Source of the DNA: Candidatus Levyibacteriota bacterium
GTDB taxonomy: Bacteria; Patescibacteriota; Microgenomatia; Levybacterales; UBA12049
Assembly (NCBI GenBank): GCA_016186625.1
Contig: JACPLG010000003.1
Location: 98,576-162,575 of the forward strand
DNA length: 64,000 bases
Direction: 5' to 3'
The position numbers and the translations under genes were made by a program. Below, one piece after another: positions 1,447 to 52,643 of this stretch; the first letter of the stretch is position 1, and every line of letters begins with the position of its first letter. Under the pieces are notes generated by a model, which was given only the letters and a program-made list of their open reading frames with translations, searched no databases and was not told the origin of the DNA.

Positions 1447-3624
1447 ATGCGACCGCTTTTTGCTGTTCAGTTAACAATTTTCTTTCTTTTTATCGCCTTT
1501 TTTGTTCTTGCCCTGAGCATGTCGAATGGGTTTGCCCAGGAAAAGAGAGAGCCCCAAGTAACTGTCACTTCTGAATTTTTTCAAGCTCCTCAAAAATTTG
1601 ATAAAGTTGACCGCAATGCCAACAAGATTCTAGAAGACTTAGAAGAGTTGATCGGTCCCGCAACGCCCCAAGATCGTTTTGATGTTATTGTTATGGCAGA
1701 AAAATCAATTGATGAAATTTTGGGGAACCTAAAATCTCGCCATGGAGAATTTTCCGAAACTTTTACCTACCCTTCCATTAACGGTTTTGCCGCCAATTTA
1801 ACCAAAGGCCAAATTATCGCATTTTCCCAAGATCTCGATATTAAACAAGTTGAATTTGACGCGCCCGTCTACCCGCATCTTGATACTTCTCAACAATGGT
1901 TCGGCACTACCAAAGCCCGCAGTGATTTTGGCGTTGACGGAGATAAAGCCAACAATGGTGCAAAAACCTATTCCAAAGACGATATTGTGGTTGCCGTTTT
2001 GGACACCGGCATTGATCCCAACCATGTAGATTTGGGGCCGGGCAAGATAATCGGCTGGAAAGACATCAATAACAATCAGGCCGGGCCGTATGATGAAACA
2101 GGCGCCTGCGGCGGTCACGGAACCCATGTTTCCTCAATGGCCACGGGTGAAGGTGACGGAAACGCCAATCTTAAGGGAGTAGCTCCGGCTGCTGCTCTGG
2201 TTGGCATAAAAGTTTTAAGCGAGCGGTTTGTCCAGGGTGCGATTCGCTGTACTGCTAGCCTTTCCGAGGTTGTAGCCGGAGTCCAGTGGATGATTGATAA
2301 TAAAGCCACTTATGGAATTGAGGTTGGCAATATGAGCTTGGGGGCAGCCGGTTGTTCCGACGGCACGGATTCGCTTTCAACAATTGTCAACACTGCGGTG
2401 GACAACGGCATTGTGATGACTGTTTCTGCCGGCAATGAAGGACCCAAACCTTGTTCTATTGGTTCACCGGCGGCGGCCGAAAAAGCTATCACCGTTGGCG
2501 CCATGGCCGATGTTACTCCGGGAGCTTCCTTTGCCAATGCCTGCGGCGACAATGACCTGCCCAATGCCGGCTTTTATCTGGCTTGTTTTTCATCAAGAGG
2601 GTTAACCGCAGATGGCAGAATCAAACCCGACATCGCCTCACCCGGTGTTTTTATTCGGGCAGCCAAAGCCGGAACAACCAGCGATTATATTGTTTATTCC
2701 GGCACCAGCATGTCCTCCCCGTTTACGGCCGGAGTTGCCGCTTTGATGCTTGATGCCAACTCCGCACAAACCCCGGCTCAAATAAAACAGAAAATCGGCG
2801 ACACTGCCCTGGATTGGGGACCGGCCGGCAAGGATGTCGATTACGGCTCCGGCCGTCTTCAGGGGTATGAAGCCGTTAAATCAGCCGGTTCATTTTCCGG
2901 CACCGGCCCCAGCGTTCCTGCCCACTTTTTTAACCAAGGGACTATAACCGCTTCCGACCCCCAGGACATTTGGAGCATCAATGTTACCGACGCTTCGCTT
3001 CCTTTAGCCATTACCATGATCATGCCGGATTGGTCAGGTGCCAGAAATCCGGATTTTGATATGCAGCTGCGCGATCCGGACGGTAACTTAATTGCCACCT
3101 CGCTTAGTGCCACAAGACAGGAAACAATCGGAGTCCAGCCGGCAAAAACAGGTACCTATCAGTTAAGAGTTTATAGATACGCTGGATCAGGGTCTTATTT
3201 TTTCGATGTCTCCTTTGGCGAGGCGGCGGTGGCCATCTCTCTGACAACCGACGGAACGACTCCCTTTGGCATTTTGCCCCTTGGTGCAACCCGCGATACC
3301 ACGCCAACCGGCACCAATGATGTGCAGACAGTCCAAGTTGATACAGGCCCGGCTAATCTTTCTGTCCGCTCAACTGCTTTTTCAGATGGAGCCGATATTT
3401 GGACGCTTGGGGCTACAAATGGATCAAATCAGGTAAAATGGGAGTTTTCCAAAGACGCAGCTGCCTGGAACACTTTTTCTTCTGCCGACACTCTATTCAC
3501 TCTTGATAACAATGTTGCACAAGGCGCTACTCGTGACCTATACTTAAGATTAACCATGCCAACATCAACAGCATCTAATAATGAACACGCGGGAACTGTT
3601 ACAATAGTTGCAAGTTCACCCTAA
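1447..3624 (+). CDS. secreted subtilisin-like serine protease (peptidase S8) with C-terminal pre-peptidase (PPC) domain
   Basis: Catalytic triad motifs VAVLDTGID (Asp), HGTHVSSMATG (His), GTSMSSPFTAGVAAL (Ser); signal peptide; AGGAG SD; C-terminal QLRVYRYAGSGSYFFDVSF PPC-like region. Confidence 0.9.
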   Translation: MRPLFAVQLTIFFLFIAFFVLALSMSNGFAQEKREPQVTVTSEFFQAPQKFDKVDRNANKILEDLEELIGPATPQDRFDVIVMAEKSIDEILGNLKSRHGEFSETFTYPSINGFAANLTKGQIIAFSQDLDIKQVEFDAPVYPHLDTSQQWFGTTKARSDFGVDGDKANNGAKTYSKDDIVVAVLDTGIDPNHVDLGPGKIIGWKDINNNQAGPYDETGACGGHGTHVSSMATGEGDGNANLKGVAPAAALVGIKVLSERFVQGAIRCTASLSEVVAGVQWMIDNKATYGIEVGNMSLGAAGCSDGTDSLSTIVNTAVDNGIVMTVSAGNEGPKPCSIGSPAAAEKAITVGAMADVTPGASFANACGDNDLPNAGFYLACFSSRGLTADGRIKPDIASPGVFIRAAKAGTTSDYIVYSGTSMSSPFTAGVAALMLDANSAQTPAQIKQKIGDTALDWGPAGKDVDYGSGRLQGYEAVKSAGSFSGTGPSVPAHFFNQGTITASDPQDIWSINVTDASLPLAITMIMPDWSGARNPDFDMQLRDPDGNLIATSLSATRQETIGVQPAKTGTYQLRVYRYAGSGSYFFDVSFGEAAVAISLTTDGTTPFGILPLGATRDTTPTGTNDVQTVQVDTGPANLSVRSTAFSDGADIWTLGATNGSNQVKWEFSKDAAAWNTFSSADTLFTLDNNVAQGATRDLYLRLTMPTSTASNNEHAGTVTIVASSP

Positions 3625-3693: not shown

Positions 3694-4335
3694 ATGATGA
3701 GCAAAAAACTTTTGTCTATATTACTAATAATTTCAGCGGTTTTTGCGTTTACTTTTGCGAATTCCGCGGTTGCCAAGATTGGTGTGGGAGTCGGTTTGGG
3801 AAAAGTTCAAATTGATGAGAAGCTTTCTCCCGGCGGAATTTATAAATTGCCTACTCTTCCTGTTCTAAACACAGGCGATGAGGATGGAGATTACGAAGTT
3901 GAAGTTACTTATCTTTCCGACCAGCCGGAATTTCAGCCACCGGGTGAGTGGTTTACCTTCACTCCCCAAAGTTTTTCCCTTGATGCCGGCGGTTCACAAT
4001 TGGTTGAGGTATCATTAACTCTTCCGGTTGATGCCAGACCCGGCAATTATTTTGCTTTTTTGGAAGCCCATCCCAAGGCCAAGGGTGAAGGGGTGACTAT
4101 TGGCATTGCCGCTGCCACCAAGCTTAATTTTACAGTTAAGCCTGCCGGTGTATTGGGCGCTGCTATTGAGAGGCTGAGAAGCCTTCTTGAAAACAACGCT
4201 CCTTTCTCTTATATTATTATTGCCGTTGTTGGTGGTGTTTTAGTTCTAAGTTTATTGGTAGTAGTCGGCAGGAAATATTTAGCGGTGCAAATTCGCTTCA
4301 AAGGTAAGTCCGCTAAAAATAAGGAGGGAGGCTAA
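3694..4335 (+). CDS. cell-surface protein: signal peptide plus C-terminal TM anchor with basic tail
   Basis: SD GGGAGGTG; ORF-track start is GTG 3688, ATG 3694 more likely; N-terminal signal; C-terminal IIIAVVGGVLVLSLLVVVGRKY...KGKSAKNKEGG. Confidence 0.6.
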   Translation: MMSKKLLSILLIISAVFAFTFANSAVAKIGVGVGLGKVQIDEKLSPGGIYKLPTLPVLNTGDEDGDYEVEVTYLSDQPEFQPPGEWFTFTPQSFSLDAGGSQLVEVSLTLPVDARPGNYFAFLEAHPKAKGEGVTIGIAAATKLNFTVKPAGVLGAAIERLRSLLENNAPFSYIIIAVVGGVLVLSLLVVVGRKYLAVQIRFKGKSAKNKEGG

Positions 4336-4337
4336 AG

Positions 4338-4799
4338 TTGAGAACATTGGGAATCATCGCTAGTGGTTTTTTACTGCTAGCGACCGCTTTGGGGCCGGTT
4401 CATGCCCAGGGCGGTACTGTTTCCGCTACTGTCAGGCCTAACCCGCTGACTGTTTCTGTTTCCGCTCCCGACCCTGTCACTGTTGGCCAGTGGTTTTATA
4501 TCAAAGCCGAAGTAACCAATTTAGGTAATCAGGCCATCACCAACACCGTGGTCACCATCAATACACCAGCTGGGATAATCGTCCGGGGACAGAAAAAAAT
4601 TAAGATTGGCGATCTTACCGGCAGCCAGACTCAAACAGTTACTTGGCTCGCCAAAGCCAATAGCTCCGGTACTTTTATCATTCAGGTTGAAGCAACGGGT
4701 GATTTGGCCGGTGAACAAATCTCTTCATCCGATTCTCTCAGCATCTCCGCCGTCAGTTCTCTTGCCGCTTTCCTGTTCCGGCTAATCTTTAATGTCTAA
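4338..4799 (+). CDS. secreted DUF11/CARDB-like repeat-domain protein
   Basis: TTG start with AAGGAGGGAGG SD; signal peptide; motif EVTNLGNQAITNTVVTINTPAG typical of DUF11/CARDB adhesin-like domains. Confidence 0.55.
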   Translation: MRTLGIIASGFLLLATALGPVHAQGGTVSATVRPNPLTVSVSAPDPVTVGQWFYIKAEVTNLGNQAITNTVVTINTPAGIIVRGQKKIKIGDLTGSQTQTVTWLAKANSSGTFIIQVEATGDLAGEQISSSDSLSISAVSSLAAFLFRLIFNV

Positions 4800-5214: not shown

Positions 5215-5511
5215 TTAACATTTTACCTTCCCACATTCCATGTGGGAATACATTTTTCGAAGCTCTTTTTTTGCTTTTTCTAAAATTTTCTTTCTTTCGG
5301 GCGCTAAATTTTTACCGGCGCGGTTAATATAAAAATTAAGCATACTCATGGCGGATTGAAAAGGAGAGGCTTTCCGTCTGGTACTGACATCTGCTGAACG
5401 CTTAAGGCTCAAAGCAATTTTTTTGGGATCATCCCAGGTAAAAACCCCCTCCTCTAAATCCAGTGCGATACTATGTTTGGTAACCTCTCCTGACCATTTC
5501 TTTTTACTCAT
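5215..5511 (-). CDS. DUF3175 family protein
   Basis: Pattern KKWSxEVTxHSxALDLE...SAMSMLNFYINRAGKNL matches DUF3175; C-terminal 8 residues are encoded by the hairpin repeat at 5228-5248. Confidence 0.6.
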   Translation of the reverse strand: MSKKKWSGEVTKHSIALDLEEGVFTWDDPKKIALSLKRSADVSTRRKASPFQSAMSMLNFYINRAGKNLAPERKKILEKAKKELRKMYSHMECGKVKC

Positions 5512-5543: not shown

Positions 5544-6194
5544 CTATTCTGTTATTATGCGGATTCTTGATGAGACAAGATTTGCCAAGACATTAAGCTG
5601 CGATTTCATTTGCACTTGATATAGTCTTGGGCCTCTATCATAAATTAGTGCCGGGGAGATAAACTGATATGTGTCCTTAGTTCCGTCTCTGGTTACTTCC
5701 GAATTCCAAACGGCGTAATTATCGGTTTTATTAAAAAGTCGGACAGATACCTTTCCATTTGCAGTAGGAACATTAATGAATGCTTCAAAATGTACCTCTT
5801 TAATATTTTCGTAGGCGGCTATATCTGCTGTAGTAAGCGCTCCTCCTACATCTGCCCAATCAAGTGATTGATTAGTTCCGGAGCCAATATTAATATAGTA
5901 TTCCTTGGAGTCTGTTTTTTTGTTTACCTCTGTGGTAACTGGTTTGGGTGTTGGAGTGGGAGATGGTGTGGCAGTTGGTTCTTGAGAGATTGAGGGAGTT
6001 GCATTAATTATTGTAGCCGGCTCGTGGCTTTTTTTTGATTGAAGAATGAGATAGAAGATTCCGGCAAGTGAGATTAAAATAATTATCGAGATTATGGCAA
6101 ATGCTACTGCTACCCTTTTCTCGTCCCTGTGAAGTTCCTCTTCTTCTTCGTGAAGTTCCTCAAGAATTGAAGAATTGCCTATTTCTTTTGTCAC
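5544..6194 (-). CDS. membrane-anchored hypothetical protein with Pro/Thr-rich linker
   Basis: 216-aa ORF; N-terminal acidic region, one TM, PTPTPKP linker, extracytoplasmic domain. Confidence 0.55.
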   Translation of the reverse strand: MTKEIGNSSILEELHEEEEELHRDEKRVAVAFAIISIIILISLAGIFYLILQSKKSHEPATIINATPSISQEPTATPSPTPTPKPVTTEVNKKTDSKEYYINIGSGTNQSLDWADVGGALTTADIAAYENIKEVHFEAFINVPTANGKVSVRLFNKTDNYAVWNSEVTRDGTKDTYQFISPALIYDRGPRLYQVQMKSQLNVLANLVSSRIRIITE

Positions 6195-6249: not shown

Positions 6250-6357
6250 GTGCTATAATTGCCCCAATGAATGATAGAATCTTGCTTCCCACATTCCAAG
6301 TGGGAAGGTACATTCAGACACCAAAAACCCTAAGCACAACTCTGCTACAATTGCCCC
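6250..6357 (+). repeat. ~110-bp interspersed repeat, copy 1: promoter-like motif at both ends, central hairpin CTTCCCACATTCCAAGTGGGAAG, embedded short ORF
   Basis: Near-identical to 12758-12865 (a few mismatches); hairpin at 6285-6307. Confidence 0.8.
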
Positions 6358-6435
6358 AATTTTCTTGTTGACAATATTTTTCTTTGGGAGTATGTTGCAA
6401 ATACAACCTATACAAGAAAGGGGGTGAAGAAATAA

Positions 6436-7197
6436 ATGGGTATTTCACAAACAAAGTGGACTTTGGGAATTGTTGCCATAGTAATAATTGCCGTTGCAGC
6501 AATTTTTGTCTACCAATCCAAAGTAAGTAACATTCCCTCAACTCAACCAACTTCGCAAGAGTCAACGACAATCGGTAAAATAACTGATATTACGTTTGTA
6601 AATCATATACAGGCAAAGCTACCTGAGCAGGACGTTTTCATTCAAAGTAAGGATGACTCTTCAAAGGTAATACGTGTTGAAGGCGAAACGGCAAGCGATC
6701 CATCAGTATTAGCTCAAACTGTCTATGCGACAGCTGTTGAAACACCGCATGACCCTTTTAAAGTGGGCGACAATCCCTTGGGGCCTTTTCAAAAAGGTGT
6801 TAATCTAGGATTCAACTTAGAAGACTGGCTGGCAGCAACGGGTAAAGGTACGTACAGTGTTGATGGCGATGATGCAGAGCTTTCTCTCTCATTTACAAAC
6901 CTTGTGCCAAATAGCACTTATACTGTTTGGTGTTCACGAATCACTTTCCCACCTACTCCAAATGTGGTGGACAGGCCATGTGGTGCAGCGGATGGCTCAG
7001 AGAATGTATTTACAACAGATGAGAATGGGAATGGTTTATTTTCAGTAAAAATGGAACCATTAGAACCAAGCACCAAAGAAACAGTATCGGCTATTGCACT
7101 TGCTTATCATAGTGATGGAAAAACATACGCGGAAAGTCCTGGCAATTTTGGACTTAACAGCCACGTACAGATTTTCTATCTTTTGCCGGCACAATAA
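6436..7197 (+). CDS. membrane-anchored hypothetical protein
   Basis: SD AAAGGGGGTGAAG; N-terminal TM; 253 aa. Confidence 0.6.
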   Translation: MGISQTKWTLGIVAIVIIAVAAIFVYQSKVSNIPSTQPTSQESTTIGKITDITFVNHIQAKLPEQDVFIQSKDDSSKVIRVEGETASDPSVLAQTVYATAVETPHDPFKVGDNPLGPFQKGVNLGFNLEDWLAATGKGTYSVDGDDAELSLSFTNLVPNSTYTVWCSRITFPPTPNVVDRPCGAADGSENVFTTDENGNGLFSVKMEPLEPSTKETVSAIALAYHSDGKTYAESPGNFGLNSHVQIFYLLPAQ

Positions 7198-7383
7198 TAG
7201 TTAGATAGATATCTGTCTCATACCTGTATGTTTATCTAGCCATATATTTTTTTGTGATAAAGTTGGTTACTTCCCTTGCCCTTCAGGGTGAAACCTTCAG
7301 GATGAATCCCTCGAAGTTCAGCATTGCATGAACGAAGTGGGGTGCTATAATTGCCCCAAAATTTTGCTATCCAAATTACATAG

Positions 7384-7758
7384 CTAATTTTTATTTAGTT
7401 TTTGTCTTTTAATACGAATGCCTGAGAGGGAAATTATAATCAAATTCCCTGAATAATCATTTTTCCTAAGTTTACTTAAGGCAGATTTTACAGCTTTATT
7501 AATGTAACCAGTAGAAAGTTCGTTTGGGAATCGTAGAATTACAATTCCACTATGAGACCCAAGCGGAAAGTTTAATATGTTTGAAAATCCTAAGTCAGCG
7601 GAAAATAAAACAGCTTTATTACCTTTGGCAAACTTAAATATTTCTATATCTGCCTTGCCTCTTAGGCCATGGTCTCTAACATCAAATACATTAAATCCTA
7701 GATTCGAGAGTACATTTGCTAAAGATTTGTGAAGATCCTCATCTATTAAGGCATTCAT
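7384..7758 (-). CDS. DUF5615-family (PIN-like) putative toxin
   Basis: Sequence pattern of DUF5615; 4-nt overlap with upstream DUF433 gene. Confidence 0.65.
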   Translation of the reverse strand: MNALIDEDLHKSLANVLSNLGFNVFDVRDHGLRGKADIEIFKFAKGNKAVLFSADLGFSNILNFPLGSHSGIVILRFPNELSTGYINKAVKSALSKLRKNDYSGNLIIISLSGIRIKRQKLNKN

Positions 7759-8012
7759 CTGAGGGCGACTTCTTCTTCCTCAACAAGTTTTGTGGCGTAC
7801 TTTAAAGCCGCTAAGACTTGCTGGCGAGTAAGTTCGTACTCTTTCATAACCTCATCTACGCTCATCCCTCCGGCAATTTTACCCACAACCACGTCAACCG
7901 GTACGCGCGTTTTTTCAATAATTGGTTTTCCAAAACGTACTTTTGGATCAACAATAATATGTGGAAAAATTTGCTTTTTCATACGACCACTAGTATAGCA
8001 TAACTTAATCAT
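7755..8012 (-). CDS. DUF433-family putative antitoxin
   Basis: IVDPKVRFGKPIIEKTRVPVDVVVGKIAGGMSVDEVMKEYELTRQQVLAALKYA is the canonical DUF433 pattern; start ATG 8012 is more plausible than ORF-track GTG 8036. Confidence 0.65.
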   Translation of the reverse strand: MIKLCYTSGRMKKQIFPHIIVDPKVRFGKPIIEKTRVPVDVVVGKIAGGMSVDEVMKEYELTRQQVLAALKYATKLVEEEEVALR

Positions 8013-8157
8013 GGTTTTTTCTTTGCATTTTTGCACTAGTTAAAATAACGACAGGTTTTCCTGATCGAGTGATTAAAACCTTTTTGTTTCCATAAAATAC
8101 CTCGTTTATTATTTCAGAAAAATTTTGTCGAGCCTGTTTTGCTGTTACCGTTTTCAC
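8005..8157 (-). CDS. Phd/YefM-like antitoxin N-terminal domain (50 aa), not in ORF track
   Basis: Manual translation VKTVTAKQARQNFSEIINEVFYGNKKVLITRSGKPVVILTSAKMQRKNHD parallels E. coli YefM (ARQNLS...ILITRQNG...VLMS); GTG start; its stop overlaps the ATG of the DUF433 gene (cATGATTAA). Confidence 0.5.
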   Translation of the reverse strand: MKTVTAKQARQNFSEIINEVFYGNKKVLITRSGKPVVILTSAKMQRKNHD

Positions 8158-8222
8158 ATCCTGATTTTATTTAACGCGATTACAAAAAAAGTTATAGAGT
8201 TATCTCTGCTATAATTGCCCCA

Positions 8223-8897
8223 ATGGATTTGGACAATAAAAGTGTGGTAATAGTTGGCGCCTCAAGCGGTTTGGGCAAAGCTTTGGCTAAACTTTTGTCC
8301 AAAGAGGGCACAAACTTATTTCTTATCTCAAGAAAAGTCGCCTTATCAAATATTCCCTCCGCTATAAAAATTGCTGCTGATGTAAGAAAAGCCGAAAATA
8401 TAAAAATAGCATTTGAGGAAATTGACAAACACACAGGTAGCATAGATCTTCTAATCAATTGTGCAGGCATAGGTCTTTTAAAAGATTTAAGGGAATCGAC
8501 AATAGAGGAAATAAATGATGTTATTGATACGGATTTAAAAGGGGCAATTTACGTAGCTCAGGAAGTTTATAAAAGAATGGCGGAGAAAGGATCGGGACAT
8601 ATCATAAATATTGTCTCTACTTCGGGACTCCGAGCCAGACCCATGGAGACAGTTTATTGCGCTGCAAAATGGGGACTTCGGGGATTTACAGAAAGTCTCC
8701 AAGTCGCTGGAGAAGAAACAGGAGTTAAGGTAACCGGAGTCTATCCGGGCGGAATGAAATCTGAAAATTTCTGGAAAATAACTCCAGGAAAAGATATAAG
8801 CGGCTTTATGGACCAAAATGAAGTCGCCCAAAAGATTATAGATTTAATCAAGGGGGATTACCAAAAAGAAGTAACAATAGAGCGTCCCAAAAAATAA
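8223..8897 (+). CDS. short-chain dehydrogenase/reductase (SDR) family oxidoreductase
   Basis: VVIVGASSGLGKA (TGxxxGxG), YCAAKWG (YxxxK); ATG 9 nt after TATAAT of the repeat motif. Confidence 0.85.
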   Translation: MDLDNKSVVIVGASSGLGKALAKLLSKEGTNLFLISRKVALSNIPSAIKIAADVRKAENIKIAFEEIDKHTGSIDLLINCAGIGLLKDLRESTIEEINDVIDTDLKGAIYVAQEVYKRMAEKGSGHIINIVSTSGLRARPMETVYCAAKWGLRGFTESLQVAGEETGVKVTGVYPGGMKSENFWKITPGKDISGFMDQNEVAQKIIDLIKGDYQKEVTIERPKK

Positions 8898-8906
8898 CTT
8901 CTCTGC

Positions 8907-8912
8907 TATAAT
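8907..8912 (+). promoter_or_regulatory. copy of TGCTATAATTGCCCC motif with no ORF downstream; candidate sRNA promoter
   Basis: Followed by ~110 nt of non-coding sequence ending in a perfect 10-bp palindrome TCAATGATTT/AAATCATTGA plus AGTTTT (9003-9028). Confidence 0.4.
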
Positions 8913-9050
8913 TGCCCCATTTATCCTTAGCCTCAAAAGGTCTCACCTTGCAAGGCTAAAACTCCATCGTCTAGTCTACGGTCTTATCTTCCATGGATTA
9001 ATTCAATGATTTAAATCATTGAAGTTTTCAGCTTCTGCTATAATTGCCCC

Positions 9051-9773
9051 ATGGACTCAGGAGATTTTCAGAGACGTTTTGAACAAGCACACAAACTCCT
9101 CACCCAGGAGACAACCAACCGAGAGAAATTTGAGGGAGTACGAACTTTGATAAAAGGTTATAATCCCAAAGTTGACAGCGCTTTAGAAAAAGTCTCCGGT
9201 GCTTTGTCTGATCTTGAAAAGCTTAAGGAAGGAGAAATAATTGAACTTAGCGCTCAACATTTACCCGAAAATTCGGAAGAAGAGAAGGAAAGAAAAAAGA
9301 AACTTTTAGCTTTTATTCGTTATTGGAAAGATTTAACTTCAGAAGTTGAAAGAGTTAGAAATGAGCTTTCTTCGCAAAACAACCAAAGCCCGTCCCAACA
9401 AGTCTCTGCTTTTGGAAAAATTGTCAAACTTGCAAAAGGACCATTTGGGGCAGTTACAATTGCTGCAGTTGCTATCGTTGCCGTACTGGGATTTATTAAT
9501 TTTCAAAAACCACCGGAAACGGTTCAGAATCAAGCGATCGATGAAAGTCCAAAACAAAAGATCCAAGTTATTGTAGTAGATGACAAAAAAATTCCTTTAA
9601 GCGAAGTTAGATCTGCAACTGGGAGTGAATGTGAAGGAAAAGCCCATTACCATGCAAGGGAGAATGGTGTTGCTGTGGCAATTGATGGAACGCAAGTCGT
9701 TGATCCAAATCCAACAAGCTGCGGCTATGGAAAAGTGGAAGAAGTTAAGATTGAAGAAATAGAACAACCCTAA
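9051..9773 (+). CDS. hypothetical bitopic membrane protein (cytoplasmic coiled-coil N-domain, one TM, extracytoplasmic C-domain)
   Basis: ATG directly follows the TGCTATAATTGCCCC motif; TM GAVTIAAVAIVAVLGFI. Confidence 0.5.
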   Translation: MDSGDFQRRFEQAHKLLTQETTNREKFEGVRTLIKGYNPKVDSALEKVSGALSDLEKLKEGEIIELSAQHLPENSEEEKERKKKLLAFIRYWKDLTSEVERVRNELSSQNNQSPSQQVSAFGKIVKLAKGPFGAVTIAAVAIVAVLGFINFQKPPETVQNQAIDESPKQKIQVIVVDDKKIPLSEVRSATGSECEGKAHYHARENGVAVAIDGTQVVDPNPTSCGYGKVEEVKIEEIEQP

Positions 9774-9793
9774 ACTTCTGCTATAATTTATGT

Positions 9794-10369
9794 ATGGCAG
9801 TAACATCTACAATGCTTCCGCTTGGCACAAAGGCACCGGATTTTAGTTTACCTGATGTTGTTTCAAATAAAACTGTAAACCTTGAAATCTTTAACGATAA
9901 AAAAGCACTTCTTGTTATGTTCATTTGTCGCCATTGTCCATATGTAAAACATGTCCAAAATGAAATAGCAAAAATCGGAAAAGATTATGAGGATAAAGAT
10001 TTGGGGATTGTCGCAATTAGTGCAAATGATGTTTCGGTTTATCCTGAAGACGGGCCGCAAAGTTTGAAAGAAATGGCAGATGAGTTAGGGTTTACTTTTC
10101 CCTATTTATATGATGAAGCACAAGAGGTTGCAAAAGCATACACTGCAGCTTGTACTCCGGATTTGTTTTTGTTCGATCATGATAGAAAATTAGTTTATAG
10201 AGGACAACTCGATGGGAGTCGGCCAGGCAATAACGAACCTGTAACTGGAAAAGATATAAGAGCGGCAATTGATGCGGTGCTTAATGATAGTGAAGTTTCA
10301 AAAGGCCAAAAACCGAGCATGGGCTGCAGCATTAAATGGAAGATCGGTAATGAACCTTCGTATTTCTAA
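9794..10369 (+). CDS. thioredoxin-fold (redoxin/TlpA-like) protein with CxxC
   Basis: KAPDFSLPD...LVMFICRHCPYV redoxin pattern; ATG 6 nt after TATAAT. Confidence 0.7.
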   Translation: MAVTSTMLPLGTKAPDFSLPDVVSNKTVNLEIFNDKKALLVMFICRHCPYVKHVQNEIAKIGKDYEDKDLGIVAISANDVSVYPEDGPQSLKEMADELGFTFPYLYDEAQEVAKAYTAACTPDLFLFDHDRKLVYRGQLDGSRPGNNEPVTGKDIRAAIDAVLNDSEVSKGQKPSMGCSIKWKIGNEPSYF

Positions 10370-10378
10370 AGAACTAAT

Positions 10379-11140
10379 TTATTTGTATTTTTTAATCAGT
10401 CCTTCAAAAGCGCGGAGCACTTCAAGAGGAGTTACGAAAACTATAGTGTTACTTTTGTCGGATGATAATTCCGAAAGAGTCTGCAGAGTACGGACGTGGA
10501 GACCTCCTGTAGTTTTGGCAAGCCTTCCAGCTGCAATAGCAATATTTTCCGCTGCTGCTTTTTCTCCTTCAGCCCGAATAACAATTGCCCGGCGCTCCCT
10601 TTCTGCTTCAGCCTGGCGTGCTATAACTCTTTTCATCTCTTCTGGCAAAATAATATCTTTTAACTCCACTGACTCTACCTTAATACCCCATGGATCTGTA
10701 GCCCTATCTATAATTGTCTGAATTTTTTTGGCAACTTGATCGCGCTTTGAGAGTAAATCGTCAAGAGAAGTTTCTCCAATTACATTTCTCATAGTTGTTT
10801 GAGCCAGCTGGGACACTGCATAAAAGAAATCCTCTACCTGCAAAACCGCCTTTTTTGCCTGATCTACGCGGTAATAAATGACAGCATTAACGCGGGCTGA
10901 AACATTATCCCGAGTGATTGCTTCCTGATCCGGAACGTCTACTGCCTTTACCCTGATGTCAATTCTTTGCCAGCCTTCTATAATAGGCCAAACAATTCTC
11001 CATCCGGGAACCATCTCGTCTCGAAATTTTCCAAAGCGGAAGCGGACTCCGCGCTCATATTGATTAACCTGTTTTATAGAGGGAATAAGAATTACCAAGA
11101 AAAAGATAATAATCCCAAGTGAAAAGACTGCAAAATCCAT
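10379..11140 (-). CDS. SPFH/band-7 (stomatin/prohibitin-like) membrane protein
   Basis: N-terminal TM plus ERGVRFRFGKF...; typical SPFH domain and coiled-coil tail. Confidence 0.85.
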   Translation of the reverse strand: MDFAVFSLGIIIFFLVILIPSIKQVNQYERGVRFRFGKFRDEMVPGWRIVWPIIEGWQRIDIRVKAVDVPDQEAITRDNVSARVNAVIYYRVDQAKKAVLQVEDFFYAVSQLAQTTMRNVIGETSLDDLLSKRDQVAKKIQTIIDRATDPWGIKVESVELKDIILPEEMKRVIARQAEAERERRAIVIRAEGEKAAAENIAIAAGRLAKTTGGLHVRTLQTLSELSSDKSNTIVFVTPLEVLRAFEGLIKKYK

Positions 11141-11229
11141 TTGGGAAGTATATTACATCAAAACATTTACATTATCAAATTAAGAAAACAGATTTTGAAA
11201 TTTCTATTCTCTGCTATAATTGCCCCGGT

Positions 11230-11667
11230 TTATTGCTTTATATACCTTTCTATTTCTTTTAGAAAATCATCCGGTGTTAGAATTTCTATTTGACGAAAGG
11301 TTTTCAATGTTAATAAATCACTATCTCCTGTTACAATAAAGCCAGATTTACCTTCAATTGCTGCTTCAAGTACTCTATTGTCGTCCTCATCTTCAAGGAT
11401 ATAAATAATTTCATCTGGATGGATAATTTTAAAATGTTTTTTTATGATTTTTTCTAACTGCTTGACTCTGATCAGCTCAAAATTAAATTTTTTGGTTAAA
11501 GTTTCTGTTAATTCAGCAAGGAGCACTGGAGAACTTATCCCAATAATTTGTTTTTCTAAAATGAGGCTATAAACTTGTTCTGGTTTTCCGCCAAATACTA
11601 GAGCGGAGATAATAACATTTGTGTCGAGGACTGCTTTAGGAGGCTTTTTTACCATGCCTAAATTCAT
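11230..11667 (-). CDS. PIN-domain toxin (VapC-like)
   Basis: VLDTNVIISAL N-terminal PIN motif; acidic residues D...E...D; overlaps upstream RHH gene. Confidence 0.75.
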   Translation of the reverse strand: MNLGMVKKPPKAVLDTNVIISALVFGGKPEQVYSLILEKQIIGISSPVLLAELTETLTKKFNFELIRVKQLEKIIKKHFKIIHPDEIIYILEDEDDNRVLEAAIEGKSGFIVTGDSDLLTLKTFRQIEILTPDDFLKEIERYIKQ

Positions 11668-11887
11668 AAACGATCTTATTTACTTCCTTTTCGCTTTTAA
11701 TCCCCATTTTTTTACCAACTTTTTTGCCATAGTCTAAAAGATCATTCCATTCCTGCCTGTCTTGCAAATAAACTCTTAAAGCCTCACGAATTAGCTCGCT
11801 TCTGTTGCGATATTCTTTTTTAGCAAGAATGTCTACTCTTTTGACTAAGTCTTTTGGAAGAGCAATGTTTAATGTTTGTGTTGCCAT
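11636..11887 (-). CDS. ribbon-helix-helix (CopG-like) antitoxin
   Basis: MATQTLNIALPKDLVKRVDILAKKEYRNRSELIREALRVYL RHH pattern; the matching minus-strand promoter is listed separately at 11896-11924. Confidence 0.65.
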   Translation of the reverse strand: MATQTLNIALPKDLVKRVDILAKKEYRNRSELIREALRVYLQDRQEWNDLLDYGKKVGKKMGIKSEKEVNKIVYEFRHGKKAS

Positions 11888-11895
11888 ATACAAAT

Positions 11896-11924
11896 ATTGT
11901 ATGTAATTGATATATCTTTGTCAA
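11896..11924 (-). promoter_or_regulatory. consensus sigma70-type promoter for the RHH-PIN operon (leaderless)
   Basis: Minus-strand TTGACA (11919-11924), 17-nt spacer, TACAAT (11896-11901), 8 nt to ATG at 11887. Confidence 0.6.
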
Positions 11925-12007
11925 CACTCAAAAACCATCATCTGCTATAATTGCCCCAAATTGCAAACAGCCCATTTTGCACTATTTAATCTCCCAGAAT
12001 AATTGTA

Positions 12008-12035
12008 TTGACAAAGTATGTACAGTTAGTATAAT
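12008..12035 (+). promoter_or_regulatory. consensus sigma70-type promoter for brnTA (leaderless)
   Basis: TTGACA (12008-12013), 16-nt spacer, TATAAT (12030-12035), 6 nt to GTG start 12042. Confidence 0.6.
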
Positions 12036-12041
12036 ATGTAA

Positions 12042-12323
12042 GTGAAATATAAGTTTGATTATTCGCTAGAGAAAGATTTAATTCTTAAAGAATCAAGAGG
12101 TGTTAGCTTTAGAGAAGTAATTCAAGCATACAGAACTGGGAAAAAGCTTGCTGACTATGAAAACAAAAGCAAAAAACACCCTAATCAAAGACTTTTAATT
12201 GTTAATATCAAAGGCTATGCATACGTTACGCCATATGTTATAGATGAAAAAAGGAAAAGAGTATTTTTAAAAACTGTATATCCAAGCAGCAAATTAACTA
12301 AGGAGTACATAAAAAAATTATGA
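12042..12323 (+). CDS. brnT: BrnT-like toxin (DUF497 ribonuclease)
   Basis: KFDYSLEKDLILKESRGVSFREVIQAY...RLLIVNIKGYAYVTPYV pattern of BrnT/DUF497; 4-nt overlap with downstream antitoxin. Confidence 0.65.
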   Translation: MKYKFDYSLEKDLILKESRGVSFREVIQAYRTGKKLADYENKSKKHPNQRLLIVNIKGYAYVTPYVIDEKRKRVFLKTVYPSSKLTKEYIKKL

Positions 12324-12628
12324 AAAAGAAAAAATTTGATCCATTTAAAAATCTTAAACTAGATAAATACGAACAGGAAATAGAAGATGCTCTTGAAAGA
12401 GAGGAATTTGTTCCTGTAGAAGACTCTTCGGAAATTAATAAAATATTGACAGAGGCTGCAAAAAATTATACCGAGCTTGAAAACAGCAAGAGTATAACTT
12501 TAAGAATTAAAAATATAGATCTAATAAAATTAAAAGCAAAAGCCGCAAGAAATAAAATTCCCTATCAGACTCTTATAAATTTACTTATAAAAGAATACAC
12601 AGAAGGCAAAACAAAAATATCATTGTAA
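12320..12628 (+). CDS. brnA: BrnA-like antitoxin
   Basis: Typical position and size after brnT; ITLRIKNIDLIKLKAKAARNKIPYQTLINLLIKEY matches the BrnA C-terminal RHH-like region. Confidence 0.6.
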   Translation: MKKKKFDPFKNLKLDKYEQEIEDALEREEFVPVEDSSEINKILTEAAKNYTELENSKSITLRIKNIDLIKLKAKAARNKIPYQTLINLLIKEYTEGKTKISL

Positions 12629-12757
12629 ATTCCTCAATTCTCATAGTTTGAAAAGGTGAGGGGTGCTTGCCCTGTTTACCCTGAACACTTGGAGGGAGCA
12701 ATGCCGAAGGGTTTACGCAGAGCGAAAGTGGGGTGCTTGCCCTGAGCAATGCCGAAG

Positions 12758-12865
12758 GACTATAATTGCCCCAATGAATAATAGAATCTTGCTTCCCACA
12801 TTCCAAGTGGGAAGGTACATTCAGACACCAAAAACCCTAAGCACAACTCTGCTATAATTGCCCCA
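12758..12865 (+). repeat. ~110-bp interspersed repeat, copy 2
   Basis: Near-identical to 6250-6357; hairpin 12792-12814; preceded by internal direct repeats GGGGTGCTTGCCCTG...GCAATGCCGAAGG x2 (12660-12758). Confidence 0.8.
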
Positions 12866-12867
12866 GA

Positions 12868-13083
12868 TCATTTTAGTCTTAAGAATTCTTCTTCGCTAGA
12901 CTCCGCTTGTTTGATTATGCCTCTTACTAGTCCTTTTTTGAGTTCTTTGGTGTGCATTGGAACAGGAATAATCTTCTTTGATTTGGGATTATACATAATA
13001 AGATGACTGCCGGTTTGTCTTTTCTTAATGTATCCGAGTTTTTGAAGAATTTTGACTATCTCTCTTGCTTTAAAACTAGCCAT
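12868..13083 (-). CDS. hicA: HicA-family mRNA interferase toxin
   Basis: REIVKILQKLGYIKKRQTGSHLIMYNPKSKKIIPVPMH is the canonical HicA (YcfA-like) pattern. Confidence 0.75.
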   Translation of the reverse strand: MASFKAREIVKILQKLGYIKKRQTGSHLIMYNPKSKKIIPVPMHTKELKKGLVRGIIKQAESSEEEFLRLK

Positions 13084-13347
13084 TTATAGAGATACTGCTG
13101 GATTTTGTACGGAAATTTGCGTGATGACAACATTTGACCCTTCTTGTGGAATTTCTTGCTTCTCTTCTTTAAGAACCTCTAAATACCCTTTCATAGCGTC
13201 TTTTATCATAGATACCGCTTCCTCAAAAGTCTCACCTTGACTTACACAGCCGGGAAGAGCTGGAACACTAACTACATAACCGCCTTCTTCAGCCGGTTCA
13301 AAAATAACAGTATATTTTAAGATTTTTTTAGAAAGAGATTTAGCCAT
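13084..13347 (-). CDS. hicB: HicB-family antitoxin
   Basis: YTVIFEPAEEGGYVVSVPALPGCVSQGETFEEAVSMIKDAMKGYLE HicB N-domain pattern; TATAAT 6 nt upstream of ATG (leaderless). Confidence 0.75.
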   Translation of the reverse strand: MAKSLSKKILKYTVIFEPAEEGGYVVSVPALPGCVSQGETFEEAVSMIKDAMKGYLEVLKEEKQEIPQEGSNVVITQISVQNPAVSL

Positions 13348-13586
13348 GCTCTAATTATATCACACCCAAACCTTATCTTCCTTGCCCCTCGAAGCTTTTT
13401 GCGAAGTGGGGTGCTATAATTGCCCCCCAAAAAAAGCCCTAATGGATAATATACTTCATTACTTTAAAGTATTGAAGTATATAATAATTTTTCCCTTTTT
13501 CCTCGTAGCATTTCTGTTTACACTGAGTAAAACCGAAGTGCTATAATTGCCCCGGGGGTTATTAATAAAAAAAATGACCCCTGAAT

Positions 13587-13898
13587 ATGTTTAATTTCTT
13601 ATCTGATTTAATCTATTTAATATTAGTTGGCTCAATATCGCTATTAACAATAATAGTTACAAAAAATAGCTTGTCAAAAAAGATATTAGCAAAAGATCCC
13701 AAGGCATTACTTATCAATAATTCCTTAATTATCTTTGGAATTATATTAATAATTATTGTATTTATTAAATATTCGTGGATTGCTGGAATTACAACAATAA
13801 CTATTGCTTTAATCATTTATATTATTATTGCTAGAATATTAGCACGTGCTCTCGAGAAAAATTTATTTGAGTCTCATAAAAAAGAAGGGCAAGAGTAA
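13587..13898 (+). CDS. small polytopic membrane protein (3 TM), unknown function, in AT-rich islet
   Basis: 103 aa, highly hydrophobic; local GC about 25%. Confidence 0.4.
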   Translation: MFNFLSDLIYLILVGSISLLTIIVTKNSLSKKILAKDPKALLINNSLIIFGIILIIIVFIKYSWIAGITTITIALIIYIIIARILARALEKNLFESHKKEGQE

Positions 13899-13978
13899 AT
13901 TCTTCAAAACATCTATAAAAACTTGACTCCGAGGCTAATGAATGGGAAAATGAGCGAGTATTATAGCTGTGGAATAAA

Positions 13979-14503
13979 ATGTTTGTTCCAAATATTAAAA
14001 CCAAAAATAAATTATTCGTACTCTCTTTTTTATCCTTGATGGCTATAATTATTTTTTTAAGTCTAAATAAAATGACAGTAAATTATAGGCTTTCGGCATT
14101 TCTAAGTTTAGCTGCAACTCTAACCTTTTTCTATACATATTTTAAAGAGGCAATATTTGATTGGCATGCTGATCCAAATAGTCAAACCATTAAAAAAATT
14201 AATGGTAAATTAGAAAAAACCTGGTTAGATAAACGAAAAGAATTGAAAGATAAAGAATCATTTATAAAAGATGCTCCTGCTGCTTGGGTGATTGAAGGAT
14301 ATATTCACGTGTTCCTAGGTTTAGCATTGGGCTGGTTTTTCTTTTGGATACTTTTAAATAGATTAAAATTTTTTGATGGAAAATTGGACCTCTCTTCATT
14401 AGGACTACCAGATCTAATTCTATTAATTGCTGGTTGGATCGGAATAAATGGTAGATTACCAACTATTGCTCACGCTGTCCAAGAATGGTTTAAGAGAAGC
14501 TAA
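13979..14503 (+). CDS. polytopic membrane protein (about 4 TM), unknown function
   Basis: 174 aa; AT-rich islet. Confidence 0.45.
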   Translation: MFVPNIKTKNKLFVLSFLSLMAIIIFLSLNKMTVNYRLSAFLSLAATLTFFYTYFKEAIFDWHADPNSQTIKKINGKLEKTWLDKRKELKDKESFIKDAPAAWVIEGYIHVFLGLALGWFFFWILLNRLKFFDGKLDLSSLGLPDLILLIAGWIGINGRLPTIAHAVQEWFKRS

Positions 14504-14571
14504 TAAATTTTAGCATTCTGATATACTTTCTTCTTGTAATCCCCGTAAAAGGATGTTATACTAGTATCAAC

Positions 14572-15351
14572 ATGCACGACATCAATCGCTTGCCACTATC
14601 TCAAATAAAACTATTGCTGCGTTTTTGGAATAATCCCAATAAAATAGGATTTGCTGAGGGAAGAGAAGAGGGAGGTAGTGTAAAGGAATTAAACAAAAAG
14701 GGTCTGATTGAACCAGCAGGGAAAATAGGGCGTAGAGTTAGATGGAGATTAGTCACTGGTAAACTCAACAGTCGAGATATTGATGTAATGATTGGCTTAA
14801 TCAAACACTCTCCAATTCCTGCCGAAGAGGAAAGCTTGATAGTTGAGCTTATAGGGGAAGCAAAAGATCTAGCGATACTAATATCAAGAAATATAGGTAC
14901 AAAAGGTTATCATTATTTTTTACAATCTTTTTTCTTGGTTCTTCGACAAATGGGCTATTTTTTTACTGAACACTCATCAACTATATTTCACTATAGCTCA
15001 GCTCTCTCTCAAGCCGAGGTAGAGATCTTGGAAAAAATCAGAGATATTCGTGATGCAATAGGACACCGAGAATCTCGAAAGAATTTTCTAACAGCTAATA
15101 TTAAACTAGTTGGAGGAATGTTTTTCAAAAATAACGATGTAGAAATTCAATATGGTAGAAATAAAATTTATTTAGTGGGTGAGATTCTTGCGATACATAA
15201 AAAAATGAGAAAGCTTTTTTCTAGCGCAGACGAACTCGCTTTTTTAAGTAGAAGCTATGGATGGCAGTATGACGAAAAAGAACTCCGAGAAGCCGAAAAA
15301 CAGTTGATAGAAAAACTCAAAAATCCAAAAGCTCTTATAAATTTAGAATAG
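14572..15351 (+). CDS. hypothetical cytoplasmic protein, possible N-terminal winged helix and R-x4-H (HEPN-like) motif
   Basis: 259 aa; motif IRDAIGHRESR; no recognisable enzyme family; assignment tentative. Confidence 0.45.
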   Translation: MHDINRLPLSQIKLLLRFWNNPNKIGFAEGREEGGSVKELNKKGLIEPAGKIGRRVRWRLVTGKLNSRDIDVMIGLIKHSPIPAEEESLIVELIGEAKDLAILISRNIGTKGYHYFLQSFFLVLRQMGYFFTEHSSTIFHYSSALSQAEVEILEKIRDIRDAIGHRESRKNFLTANIKLVGGMFFKNNDVEIQYGRNKIYLVGEILAIHKKMRKLFSSADELAFLSRSYGWQYDEKELREAEKQLIEKLKNPKALINLE

Positions 15352-15636
15352 TATTTTTTTAAAAACTAATTCTTACAAAGCTCTTGCATTATATTCCTTG
15401 ACATGTATACAGGTCGCTTTGCTCCAATTTCTAATTTCTAGTTACTAATTTCTAATCAATTCCATACAGAATTTCTATTGATAATTTTTTAAGAATGTTT
15501 AGAATATAAATATGAAGAAAAGTGCCATGACAGAGGGCTGGAATTCATCTCTTAACAAACTCGCCCGATCTTTATACTGATTTGTGCTCAATTTTAGTCT
15601 ATGCTAAGCTAAATACGGTTATTGTTTGCCTTGAGT

Positions 15637-40195: not shown

Positions 40196-40292
40196 AATTA
40201 CTCCAATAATGGTTGCATAACCGAGGAAACGCCCTTTAATCTTTTAAAAATAGCTTCCGTGCACCAAAAACACCCGCCTGCCACGGTTGCCC
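40196..40292 (-). pseudogene. duplicated fragment of msrA 5' end (encodes about [18 protein letters not shown]), no start codon
   Basis: About 80 nt about 85% identical to 38672-38745 inside msrA. Confidence 0.55.
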
Positions 40293-48087: not shown

Positions 48088-48201
48088 ATCCTGAAAATTT
48101 CTAAATCCTAATTTCTAATTTCTAAACATTTAGGTTAATTAGGTCAATTTCTTGGCTATTGTACCACGCCTAACTTGCAAGTGCGAGTCAAGTTGGGGTA
48201 A

Positions 48202-52539: not shown

Positions 52540-52643
52540 TTTTTATGATATTTACTTGTCACATTTTAGCTTCCCACTTGACATGTGGGAACTCGGGTAT
52601 AGTTCTTGTTTGGTATCTTCTAAAATTGGTATAAAAAGTTTAT

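Follow-up and report, generated by a model that had tools for sequence, protein, structure and literature searches.

A probable gene-less promoter-REP-promoter mini-cassette present twice in a cassette island of a Levybacteria genome

The interspersed repeat of about 110 bp found at positions 6250-6357 and 12758-12865 of a 64-kb stretch of Candidatus Levyibacteriota DNA (64,000 nucleotides in total, hereafter the window) is a gene-less mini-cassette, present twice, in which a REP hairpin is enclosed by two promoter motifs. We put at roughly two in three the probability of the complete reading, namely that this mini-cassette is one member of an island of units that are separated from each other by a single conserved promoter. 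CPR bacteria (Patescibacteria) have tiny genomes and, to our knowledge, little is known about the gain and expression of their accessory genes.

The repeat unit and its filled and empty sites

Positions 6253-6358 and 12760-12865 align without gaps and are identical at 104 of 106 positions, with mismatches at 6278 (G/A) and 6348 (C/T), in agreement with the near identity claimed in the original prediction. The homology between the copies breaks off sharply outside the flanking TA(T/C)AATTGCCCC motifs (TAYAATTGCCCC) and the repeat is therefore not part of a larger segmental duplication, the explanation against which the prediction was to be checked: similarity is confined to the interval between the motifs. 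The two copies (A and B), 98% identical, lie 6.5 kb apart in direct orientation, and both contain the perfect central stem-loop that had been described, CTTCCCAC-ATTCCAA-GTGGGAAG. Within the unit, 19 nt separate a first linker promoter from the REP, and 35 nt lie between the REP and a second linker promoter. The respective features are the following.

6251..6266, + strand: left-edge linker promoter of copy A, TGC-TATAAT-TGCCCC-A, the first motif of the array, found in the same place in the syntenic locus L031
6267..6342, + strand: body of copy A, 76 nt, including the REP hairpin; a non-conserved 34-codon ORF begins here
6285..6307, no strand assigned: REP hairpin of copy A, CTTCCCAC-ATTCCAA-GTGGGAAG
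6343..6358, + strand: right-edge linker promoter of copy A, TGC-TACAAT-TGCCCC-A, upstream of the gene for a 253-aa protein (6436-7197)
12656..12760, + strand: linker modules GGGGTGC-TTGCCCTGAGCAATGCCGAAGG... and GTTTAC...CGAAGTG, which precede the left motif of copy B and are found only just upstream of motifs
12758..12773, + strand: left-edge linker motif of copy B, GAC-TATAAT-TGCCCC-A, without the TG of the extended -10 element
12774..12849, + strand: body of copy B, 76 nt, with a 27-codon ORF
12792..12814, no strand assigned: REP hairpin of copy B
12850..12865, + strand: right-edge linker promoter of copy B, facing the 3' end of a reversed HicA toxin gene (12868-13083)

An empty site corresponding to copy B is present in the related loci L082 and L097, which read ...GAAGGGC-TATAATTGCCCCA-GTTATTTTAG (the 3' end of HicA) without the 92 bp, whereas the window reads ...GAAGGAC-TATAATTGCCCCA-[92 bp]-GATCATTTTAG. 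The window thus contains exactly one 92-bp unit and one motif more than these relatives. This comparison supports the interpretation of the unit as a putative insertion relative to L082/L097, and the difference at copy B would fit either a gain here or a loss there.

The original prediction regarded the whole repeat as a MITE-like mobile element. In a version of this view that we consider unlikely, the entire unit of ~92 bp is a small non-autonomous element (MITE- or REPIN-like) that targets the motif, duplicates ~14-16 bp of it and delivers a promoter. The relationship of the window to the L082/L097 arrangement, with 92 bp added and (C)TATAATTGCCCCA on both sides, is what such an element would leave behind, and the two 98% identical copies 6.5 kb apart, as well as a core consisting of a REP, a known mobile repeat, point in the same direction. 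However, terminal inverted repeats are lacking: the unit has no inverted repeat apart from its central hairpin, and its ends, AATGAATG... and ...CAACTCTGC, are unrelated to each other. The search for a target-site duplication returned the same 14-16-nt promoter motif on both sides of both copies, which is also present at 10 other junctions and flanks every other, unrelated cassette of the array. On these grounds, the MITE identity is rejected. Moreover, Y1 transposases of the IS200/IS605 family insert without target duplication. The unit contains a single REP and not the inverted REP doublet that defines a REPIN (PMC3337134), and the promoter-hairpin units of L083 and L085 share nothing with it except the motif and the hairpin. 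Further copies of the unit were not detected in the 64 kb, among ~115 related loci or in collections of plasmids and phages, and the two copies in the window both lie within the array. What survives of the mobile-element claim is the hairpin, which does belong to a mobile REP family; the 110-bp unit as a MITE does not. By the same token, the promoter motif is indeed found at both edges of the repeat but, with 12 exact sites, is not specific to it, and the promoters that the element was thought to deliver are the standing linkers of a cassette array.

The promoter linker and the cassette island

The motif TAYAATTGCCCC occurs exactly 12 times in the window, always on the + strand and always within positions 6254-13553 (7.3 kb), with no exact copy on the - strand or in the remaining 57 kb; when up to two mismatches are allowed, there are 21 sites, compared to 7.2 expected. 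Its consensus, T(C/G)TGC-TATAAT-TGCCCC-A, is of the extended -10 type and is often directly followed by ATG. When 51 distinct copies, taken from the window and from related loci, are combined in a logo, conservation extends only from -5 to +12, a -35 element is not seen, and ATG is located 0-2 nt after TGCCCC in 23 copies. Likewise, ATG directly follows the motif in eight of the nine copies listed for L097, the genes for an SDR protein (8223) and a 240-aa protein (9051) in the window begin right after it, and in a Saccharibacteria locus (L023) it is found 6 nt upstream of a tRNA-Pro gene. A variant of the motif, TATAATTACCCG, is present in L098.

The extended -10 element (TGnTATAAT) and a start codon placed where transcription would be expected to begin bear out, at the sequence level, the promoter-like character originally ascribed to the terminal motif. 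They show the bounding motif to be a predicted extended -10 promoter with an invariant C-rich discriminator, TGCCCC, and the predicted transcription start should lie at or beside the ATG, which would give a leaderless mRNA. C-rich discriminators are typical of rrnB-P1-type promoters and unusual for Terrabacteria (PMC12641261). Several ordinary genes of the window, including rpoD, hicB and redoxin, are preceded by TGnTAnAAT, with ATG 6-8 nt later and varied discriminators, suggesting that this genome habitually uses leaderless promoters of the extended -10 type. The features that are apparently specific for the array are the invariant TGCCCC discriminator and the single orientation.

The linker motif also stands before reversed genes, where there is nothing to express in sense.

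The 12 co-oriented motifs delimit 11 units.

6251..15385, + strand: variable cassette island with 12 co-oriented linker promoters in a conserved locus
TATAAT starts (TACAAT at 6346): 6254, 6346, 7346, 8210, 8907, 9039, 11215, 11946, 12761, 12853, 13415, 13542
9782: degenerate linker motif
Unit 1, 92 bp: copy A of the repeat
Unit 2, 1000 bp: unknown 253-aa protein
Unit 3, 864 bp: reversed DUF5615/DUF433 toxin-antitoxin pair and Phd fragment
Unit 4, 697 bp: SDR
Unit 5, 132 bp: without a gene
Unit 6, 2176 bp: 240-aa protein, redoxin (at the degenerate motif 9782) and reversed SPFH gene
Unit 7, 731 bp: reversed PIN/RHH pair
Unit 8, 815 bp: BrnT/BrnA-like pair
Unit 9, 92 bp: copy B of the repeat
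Unit 10, 562 bp: reversed HicA/HicB pair
Unit 11, 127 bp: without a gene
After the last motif, to about 15385: membrane and unknown proteins

The island thus encompasses four toxin-antitoxin pairs (three of them reversed), a Phd antitoxin fragment, the SDR, redoxin and SPFH genes and four gene-less cassettes, along with several unknown proteins. Elsewhere, the window consists of ordinary chromosomal sequence (rpoD at 45217-46299, dnaG, ruvABC, purA/B/H, def, yceG, leuS). The population is present in the runs SRR12113420-30, and the Logan contigs recovered in a search for extensions of the source contig were all short and ended at repeats of the array. No recombinase, and specifically no Phage_integrase or IntI domain, was identified among the 70 of 79 ORFs that were scanned in the 64-kb window or in 20 kb of L097. 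A phage or plasmid origin was considered and rejected: the motif has only single chance matches in viral contigs, the hairpin has none, and the unit is absent from plasmids and phages. A match of the linker modules in L113 is also attributable to chance.

A scan of a genome collection with TCTGCTATAATTGCCCC retrieved 62 loci, ~18 of these from CPR genomes. Arrays with multiple copies on one strand are present in Levybacteria (L055/L097 and L074), Gottesmanbacteria (L039) and other Patescibacteria (L041, L056), as well as in three probably mislabelled bins (L031, L052, L077); L082 has two one-strand arrays in opposite orientations. Individual cassettes can be traced between these genomes. The BrnTA cassette is 98.9% identical to its copy in L055, among unrelated neighbours, and the homology spans from CTGCTATAAT to the GGGGTGC ahead of the next TATAAT. 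The HicAB cassette shows 86.6% identity from motif to motif with L082 and is tandemly duplicated, again from motif to motif, in L098, from another Rifle sample, compared to L097. The SPFH cassette is 85.6% identical to that of L074, with the homology starting right after ...TGCCCC and stopping 7 nt before TCTCTGC-TATAAT.

Furthermore, the syntenic locus L031 contains two cassettes between the same flanks that enclose at least 11 in the window; its left flank consists of a homologue of the gene at 5544-6194 and the first motif, and its right flank of homologues of 15388-15430, yceG and purH. Taken together, these alignments show that, when related genomes are compared, cassettes have been exchanged or duplicated or are missing and that the breakpoints lie at the motif; the same cassettes come in different orders in different Levybacteria. 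A literature search yielded no relevant paper containing the motif and no description of cassette arrays in CPR.

The REP hairpin, a RAYT-like transposase and the proposed origin of the unit

The hairpin TTCCCAC-N7-GTGGGAA occurs four times in the window (5228, 6286, 12793 and 52571), compared to 0.01 expected from shuffles. The recurrence outside the repeat, claimed in the original prediction for 5228-5248 and for about 52569-52593, is accounted for by two copies with the exact stem.

5228..5248, no strand assigned: REP hairpin with the loop ATTCCAT, providing the last codons and stop of the DUF3175 gene (5215-5511, - strand)
52571..52591, no strand assigned: REP hairpin with the loop TTGACAT, between the glutaredoxin and transaldolase genes

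The first of these encodes the terminal HMECGKVKC and the stop codon of the DUF3175 gene, and the Pfam match to DUF3175 stops at residue 89 of 98. In L082, the 84% identical ortholog has a different C-terminus, ...ELRKIFTE, without the hairpin, and the DNA homology between the window and L082 is lost exactly at the hairpin start. The coincidence of this breakpoint with the REP and the different end in L082 show that the REP replaced the 3' end of the gene. The proposed remodelling of gene 3' ends by the hairpin, along with the ortholog comparison suggested for checking it, is thus upheld.

A metagenome scan with CTTCCCACATTCCANGTGGGAA gave 15 exact matches with unrelated flanks, 14 of them intergenic (the exception, L090, is inside an ORF on a GC-rich contig), usually a few to ~170 nt past a stop codon; six informative contexts are between convergent genes. 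In this family, the stem is invariant, the loop is variable and the 5' foot is often TA(C/G)C. Apart from a nested duplicate in L082, all hairpins are single. Three of them cluster around one gene in both L084 and L093, one at each end and one inside the coding sequence. The products of 225 aa (L084) and 215 aa (L093) are 67% identical to each other, match Pfam Y1_Tnp with 35.8 and 37.4 bits, respectively, against a cutoff of 23, and have a visible HUH motif (NHFHLL) and Y motif. Their best NCBIfam match is the REP-associated tyrosine transposase (REP_Tyr_transpos, NF047646), with scores of 38.7 and 42.1 bits, below the equivalog cutoff of 80. A third ortholog (P0013, in L114/L115), 70% identical, has the same hairpin arrangement and housekeeping neighbours; Y1_Tnp is precomputed for L114, no tnpB is annotated beside the transposase gene, and a further hairpin lies 8 kb away.

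A Y1 gene flanked by hairpins with the same stem in three loci is the defining REP/RAYT configuration, which identifies the hairpin, on sequence grounds, as a REP element of the kind maintained by a single-copy RAYT (Y1, IS200-like) transposase. More than 5000 proteins belong to the RAYT-like family, and the nearest of its named members come from Daviesbacteria, Levybacteria and other Microgenomates. RAYTs are single-copy genes with cognate REPs on both sides, and REPs have been co-opted as terminators (PMC3337134, PMC3116915). No RAYT was found in the window by tblastn with a RAYT query or among the 70 of 79 ORFs scanned. Two proteins adjoining the repeat exactly match MBI2621164.1 and MBI2621165.1 of a Candidatus Levybacteria MAG (171,713-bp contig), and MBI2621608.1, from a 238,547-bp contig of a Levybacteria MAG, is 67% identical to the RAYT of L084 and carries an accession number 444 after that of MBI2621164.1. 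Judging by the accession numbering alone, a RAYT gene is very probably located on a different contig of the source MAG. A literature search returned no paper linking RAYT or REPIN to CPR.

Other identities of the hairpin were considered. Outside the hairpins, the half-sites TTCCCAC and GTGGGAA show no over-representation, and a role as an uptake sequence is rejected for this reason. The loop TTGACAT is the same as the tRNA-Val(GAC) loop in L071, and ATTCCAA matches tRNA-Gly(UCC) at six of seven positions. The loops vary widely, with no link to neighbouring tRNAs, so that mimicry of an anticodon arm is dismissed as coincidence. In a test for intrinsic terminators, no U-tract was found after the hairpins of the unit, which precede GGTACATTCAGAC; a T-rich tail on the + strand follows only the copy at 5228. 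No Rfam family matches the window or the hairpin loci, so that a known RNA is also rejected.

Compared to shuffles, two of the other gene-less cassettes have far more stable folds.

8920..9035, + strand: body of a gene-less cassette, fold z = -5.05, palindrome TTCAATGAT-TTAA-ATCATTGAA followed by TTTT
13428..13538, + strand: body of a gene-less cassette, fold z = -4.0, palindrome core shared with mini-cassettes of L039, L077 and L043

These cassettes bear on a second improbable alternative, under which the unit is one of several dedicated small-RNA genes of the array and could, e.g., regulate neighbouring toxin-antitoxin cassettes. Each of the four gene-less cassettes pairs a promoter with a palindrome, the two listed above end in T-runs, and one core is kept in three other loci; in addition, copy B adjoins the reversed HicAB cassette. 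In L083 and L085/L096, a promoter is likewise followed by the REP; the spacers there (25-27 nt) are unrelated, a second motif is missing and the hairpin is read in another frame. Including the window, there are three unrelated contexts in which the hairpin is located 19-27 nt downstream of the motif, each of them with flanking pairing. Against this stand the fold of the 92-bp unit itself, which improves only slightly on shuffles (z = -1.6 to -2.0) and is not significant, the lack of a terminator T-run and of an Rfam match, the prevalence of the hairpin at ordinary gene 3' ends unrelated to toxin-antitoxin genes, and the lack of an identified complementary target. The predicted fold consists of the REP stem-loop extended by UGAAUG/CAUUCA pairing.

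It is very unlikely that the unit encodes a leaderless micro-protein of 27-34 aa, MN[DN]RILLPTFQVGRYIQTPKTLSTTLL. The embedded mini-ORF reported in the original prediction is indeed open in both copies, with the ATG one base past TGCCCC exactly as in the genuine SDR gene. It comprises 34 codons in copy A (6267-6371) and 27 in copy B (12774-12857), where the TATAAT that follows provides the TAA stop; the corresponding TACAAT of copy A is read through. However, the C-terminus and stop accordingly differ, the single difference between the bodies of the two copies is non-synonymous (D/N), the homologous L085/L096 units read the hairpin in another frame (MARKFRSTFPHSKWEGR...), and the predicted fold places the AUG in a paired region. 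Neither exact mini-ORF is present among 15 billion proteins, and no homologue was found for the 64-aa extended ORF. The mini-ORF is thus not conserved. Equally unlikely is the notion that the copies are junction repeats of one 6.5-kb block (6358-12760) that recombined into the array at a unit already present there: the direct orientation, the 98% identity and the location of copy A at the very start of the array would fit, but the block is a mosaic of cassettes found separately elsewhere (SPFH in L074, BrnTA in L055) and no relative carries it as a unit.

Under the preferred reading, that of a gene-less mini-cassette in a promoter-separated island, a REP would have lodged in a short promoter-to-promoter spacer, creating the unit, which would then have been copied within the array through recombination between identical linkers rather than by transposition of its own. 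Because a 92-bp circle seems implausible, unequal exchange, slippage or conversion between identities of 14-23 nt would be likelier than excision and integration of the integron type. Most likely, we infer, the upstream promoter would make a short RNA with a 5'-AUG that would fold around the REP through the UGAAUG/CAUUCA pairing, the embedded ORF being incidental. The REP might attenuate or insulate this RNA before the next promoter, or protect 3' ends, as REPs do elsewhere, and the second promoter would serve the next cassette. Given the lack of a U-tract and the weak fold, a terminator or insulator action of the REP in the unit is a conjecture. The recurrent spacing of 19-27 nt hints that promoter and REP may form a specific functional unit rather than an accidental one, which counts against this explanation.

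More tentatively, and in our estimate improbably, the linker T(C/G)TGC-TATAAT-TGCCCC-A could be the attachment site of an undescribed gene-capture system of CPR. The array may then be a platform of the integron kind that lacks both attC hairpins and an adjacent integrase and whose recombination site doubles as a leaderless promoter; captured cassettes would be expressed on arrival, and the promoter-REP units would be the smallest cassettes.

Comparison with known systems

The unit resembles MITEs, including the promoter-carrying Correia elements of Neisseria, in being small, non-coding and repeated, with both a filled and an empty site, and, as in the Correia type, in having promoter-like -10 boxes at its ends. 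Unlike MITEs, it lacks terminal inverted repeats, is flanked by a repeat that is not a variable short target duplication, and has been detected in only two copies, both in the array, in the 64 kb and the ~115 related loci.

REP/RAYT elements are best known from Proteobacteria. The hairpin shares with them the form of a short extragenic palindrome with an invariant stem and a partly conserved 5' foot, TA(C/G)C, mostly located at gene 3' ends or between convergent genes, as well as the association with a Y1 (HUH) transposase gene without tnpB that is bracketed by the same hairpins in three divergent loci and surrounded by housekeeping genes in L114/L115. The differences are the CPR (Microgenomates) lineage, the low density (four copies per 64 kb), the occurrence as single hairpins and not as the inverted doublets of REPINs, the third hairpin inside the RAYT coding sequence, and the loop triplet, which is variable in contrast to the fixed stem. 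The repeat is of a known type but occurs in a CPR lineage for which we found no prior description, and it is active enough to rewrite a gene 3' end.

As for the linker, TGnTATAAT without a -35 element and with 6-7 nt to a 5'-terminal AUG is shared with the leaderless extended -10 promoters of Actinobacteria and Deinococcus, and the C-rich discriminator is shared with stable-RNA promoters (PMC12641261), in line with the motif copy that precedes a tRNA gene. In contrast to leaderless and rrnB-P1-type promoters, the discriminator is invariant across unrelated cassettes and CPR lineages and the motif is also found before reversed genes. The linker offers a ready-made, testable consensus promoter for organisms without genetic tools.

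The pdif modules of Acinetobacter plasmids are small, often encode toxin-antitoxin systems, are bounded by a short conserved site and are reshuffled between replicons; the pdif sites are XerC/XerD sites in alternating orientation. The cassettes described here are likewise small, often toxin-antitoxin modules that are reshuffled between short conserved sites. In contrast to pdif, all these sites are direct and have no Xer-type dyad.

In its layout, the array resembles integrons and CALINs, clusters of attC sites without an integrase. Co-oriented boundary sites delimit cassettes of one or two genes, many cassettes are toxin-antitoxin pairs, mostly reversed, some are gene-less or duplicated, the number of cassettes at one locus differs between relatives (two versus at least 11), and the same cassette is found in different orders in different genomes. 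Nevertheless, the array fails the tests that define integrons: the boundary is a 17-nt sequence-conserved promoter and not a structured attC, lies 5' of the gene and supplies its promoter; the motif logo contains no GTTRRRY core and the seven junction DNA folds are no better than shuffles, so that an attC-like structure is rejected; and no IntI was found among the 70 of 79 ORFs scanned in the 64 kb or within 20 kb in L097. One invariant, predicted leaderless promoter appears to punctuate a fast-turning island rich in toxin-antitoxin cassettes. If the linker turns out to be a recombination site, the island would represent a new kind of gene-capture platform; otherwise, it remains a clear example of a genomic hotspot organized by promoter-sized homology. 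Compared to the REP/RAYT elements, the promoter linker that organizes this integron-like, attC-less island is the more interesting part.

Array promoters facing reversed toxin genes, and promoters outside the array

In all three reversed toxin-antitoxin cassettes of the array, the array promoter (the extended -10 motif that separates the cassettes) is directed at the toxin gene from its 3' side:

Motif at 7346, toxin 3' end at 7384 (DUF5615)
Motif at 11215, toxin 3' end at 11230 (PIN)
Motif at 12853, toxin 3' end at 12868 (HicA)

Given this orientation, the array promoter would be expected to produce antisense RNA to the toxin in each of the three cassettes. The arrangement of motif and toxin 3' end is the same for HicA in two related loci, L097 and L082.

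Many ordinary genes of the window carry TGnTAnAAT 6-8 nt 5' of the ATG, with no room for a Shine-Dalgarno sequence, for example:

46314, - strand, rpoD
13362, - strand, hicB
9779, + strand, redoxin
41217, + strand
26916, - strand
23038, - strand

In the source Levybacteria genome, most genes therefore seem to be expressed from leaderless mRNAs. One S8 protease gene lies on either side of the array, the first at 1447 and the second at 15622. A near-copy of the motif, TGATATAATTGCCGC, is located beyond the array at 1419-1433, 13 nt 5' of the gene at 1447.

Linker modules and gene-less cassettes

A second repeat family, CTTCC(C)TTGCCC...GCGAAGTGGGGTGC, is found only immediately 5' of some array motifs, within the linkers between cassettes, and TTGCCCTGAGCNAWGYCGAAGGRC or GTTTACACTGAGTGAAACCGAAGTG modules are sometimes added after GCGAAGTGGGGTGC:

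Window, 7270-7345, 12656-12760, 13379-13414 and 13515-13541
L097 (Levybacteria array), 3697-3762 and 4283-4350
L074 (Levybacteria array), about 2610-2755, reverse strand

The string GGGGTGC|TTGCCC in these modules resembles the motif minus TATAA. As a result, one and the same cassette, SPFH, has linkers of 7 to about 150 nt.

Further examples of gene-less cassettes, made up of promoter plus palindrome, are the following:

Window, 8907-9039 and 13415-13542
L039, 597-750
L077, 1036-1146
L043

Two gene-less cassettes of this type fold far more stably than shuffles (z = -5.05 and -4.0) and have T-runs at their ends, and thus could be either small-RNA genes or bare promoter-terminator slots. The palindrome core of one such cassette recurs in L039 and L043 at 95-98% identity, the L077 copy being more diverged.

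REP hairpins and other repeats

Each RAYT gene (a Y1 transposase gene flanked by REP hairpins) contains a copy of its own REP stem inside its coding sequence, and this position is shared by the three orthologs, which have 67-70% identity:

L084, about 5560, encoding PLKEWEG
L093, about 427, encoding PLKMWEG
L114, about 10475

The REP loops compared (window 5235, 6293 and 52578; L084, L093 and L114) are mostly N-U-NNN-A-N, with variation confined to the central triplet (e.g., UCC, GAC, UUC, CUU). The loop TTGACAT is identical to the anticodon loop of tRNA-Val(GAC) in L071, probably by coincidence, given that REP loops show no association with neighbouring tRNA genes.

The window also contains a 76-nt direct repeat (86% identity), one copy of which (38668-38743) is the 5' part of msrA (GGGCFWC motif, - strand); the other (40215-40290) lies between genes and looks like a gene fragment. 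The heptamer AATTTCT forms short intergenic runs (AATTTCTAATTTCTAG...) at 15426-15461, 48096-48131 and 60183-60218.

Related contigs and the right border of the island

Three CPR motif arrays (L031, L052 and L077) are on contigs named 'uncultured Gammaproteobacteria', labels that are probably binning or naming errors. L031 is syntenic with the Levybacteria window, and L052 has one gene in common with it (67-76% DNA identity).

The right edge of the island includes 43 nt (15388-15430) that are 88% conserved with L031 6559-6601, identity elsewhere being about 70%. This stretch has TTGACA ahead of the palindrome TGTATACA and is a possible operator or promoter. The gene at 14572-15351, with which the variable region ends, encodes a 259-aa protein with no Pfam match. 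Its R-x4-H stretch, RDAIGH, reads like a HEPN nuclease motif, and the gene may be an additional defence or toxin gene.
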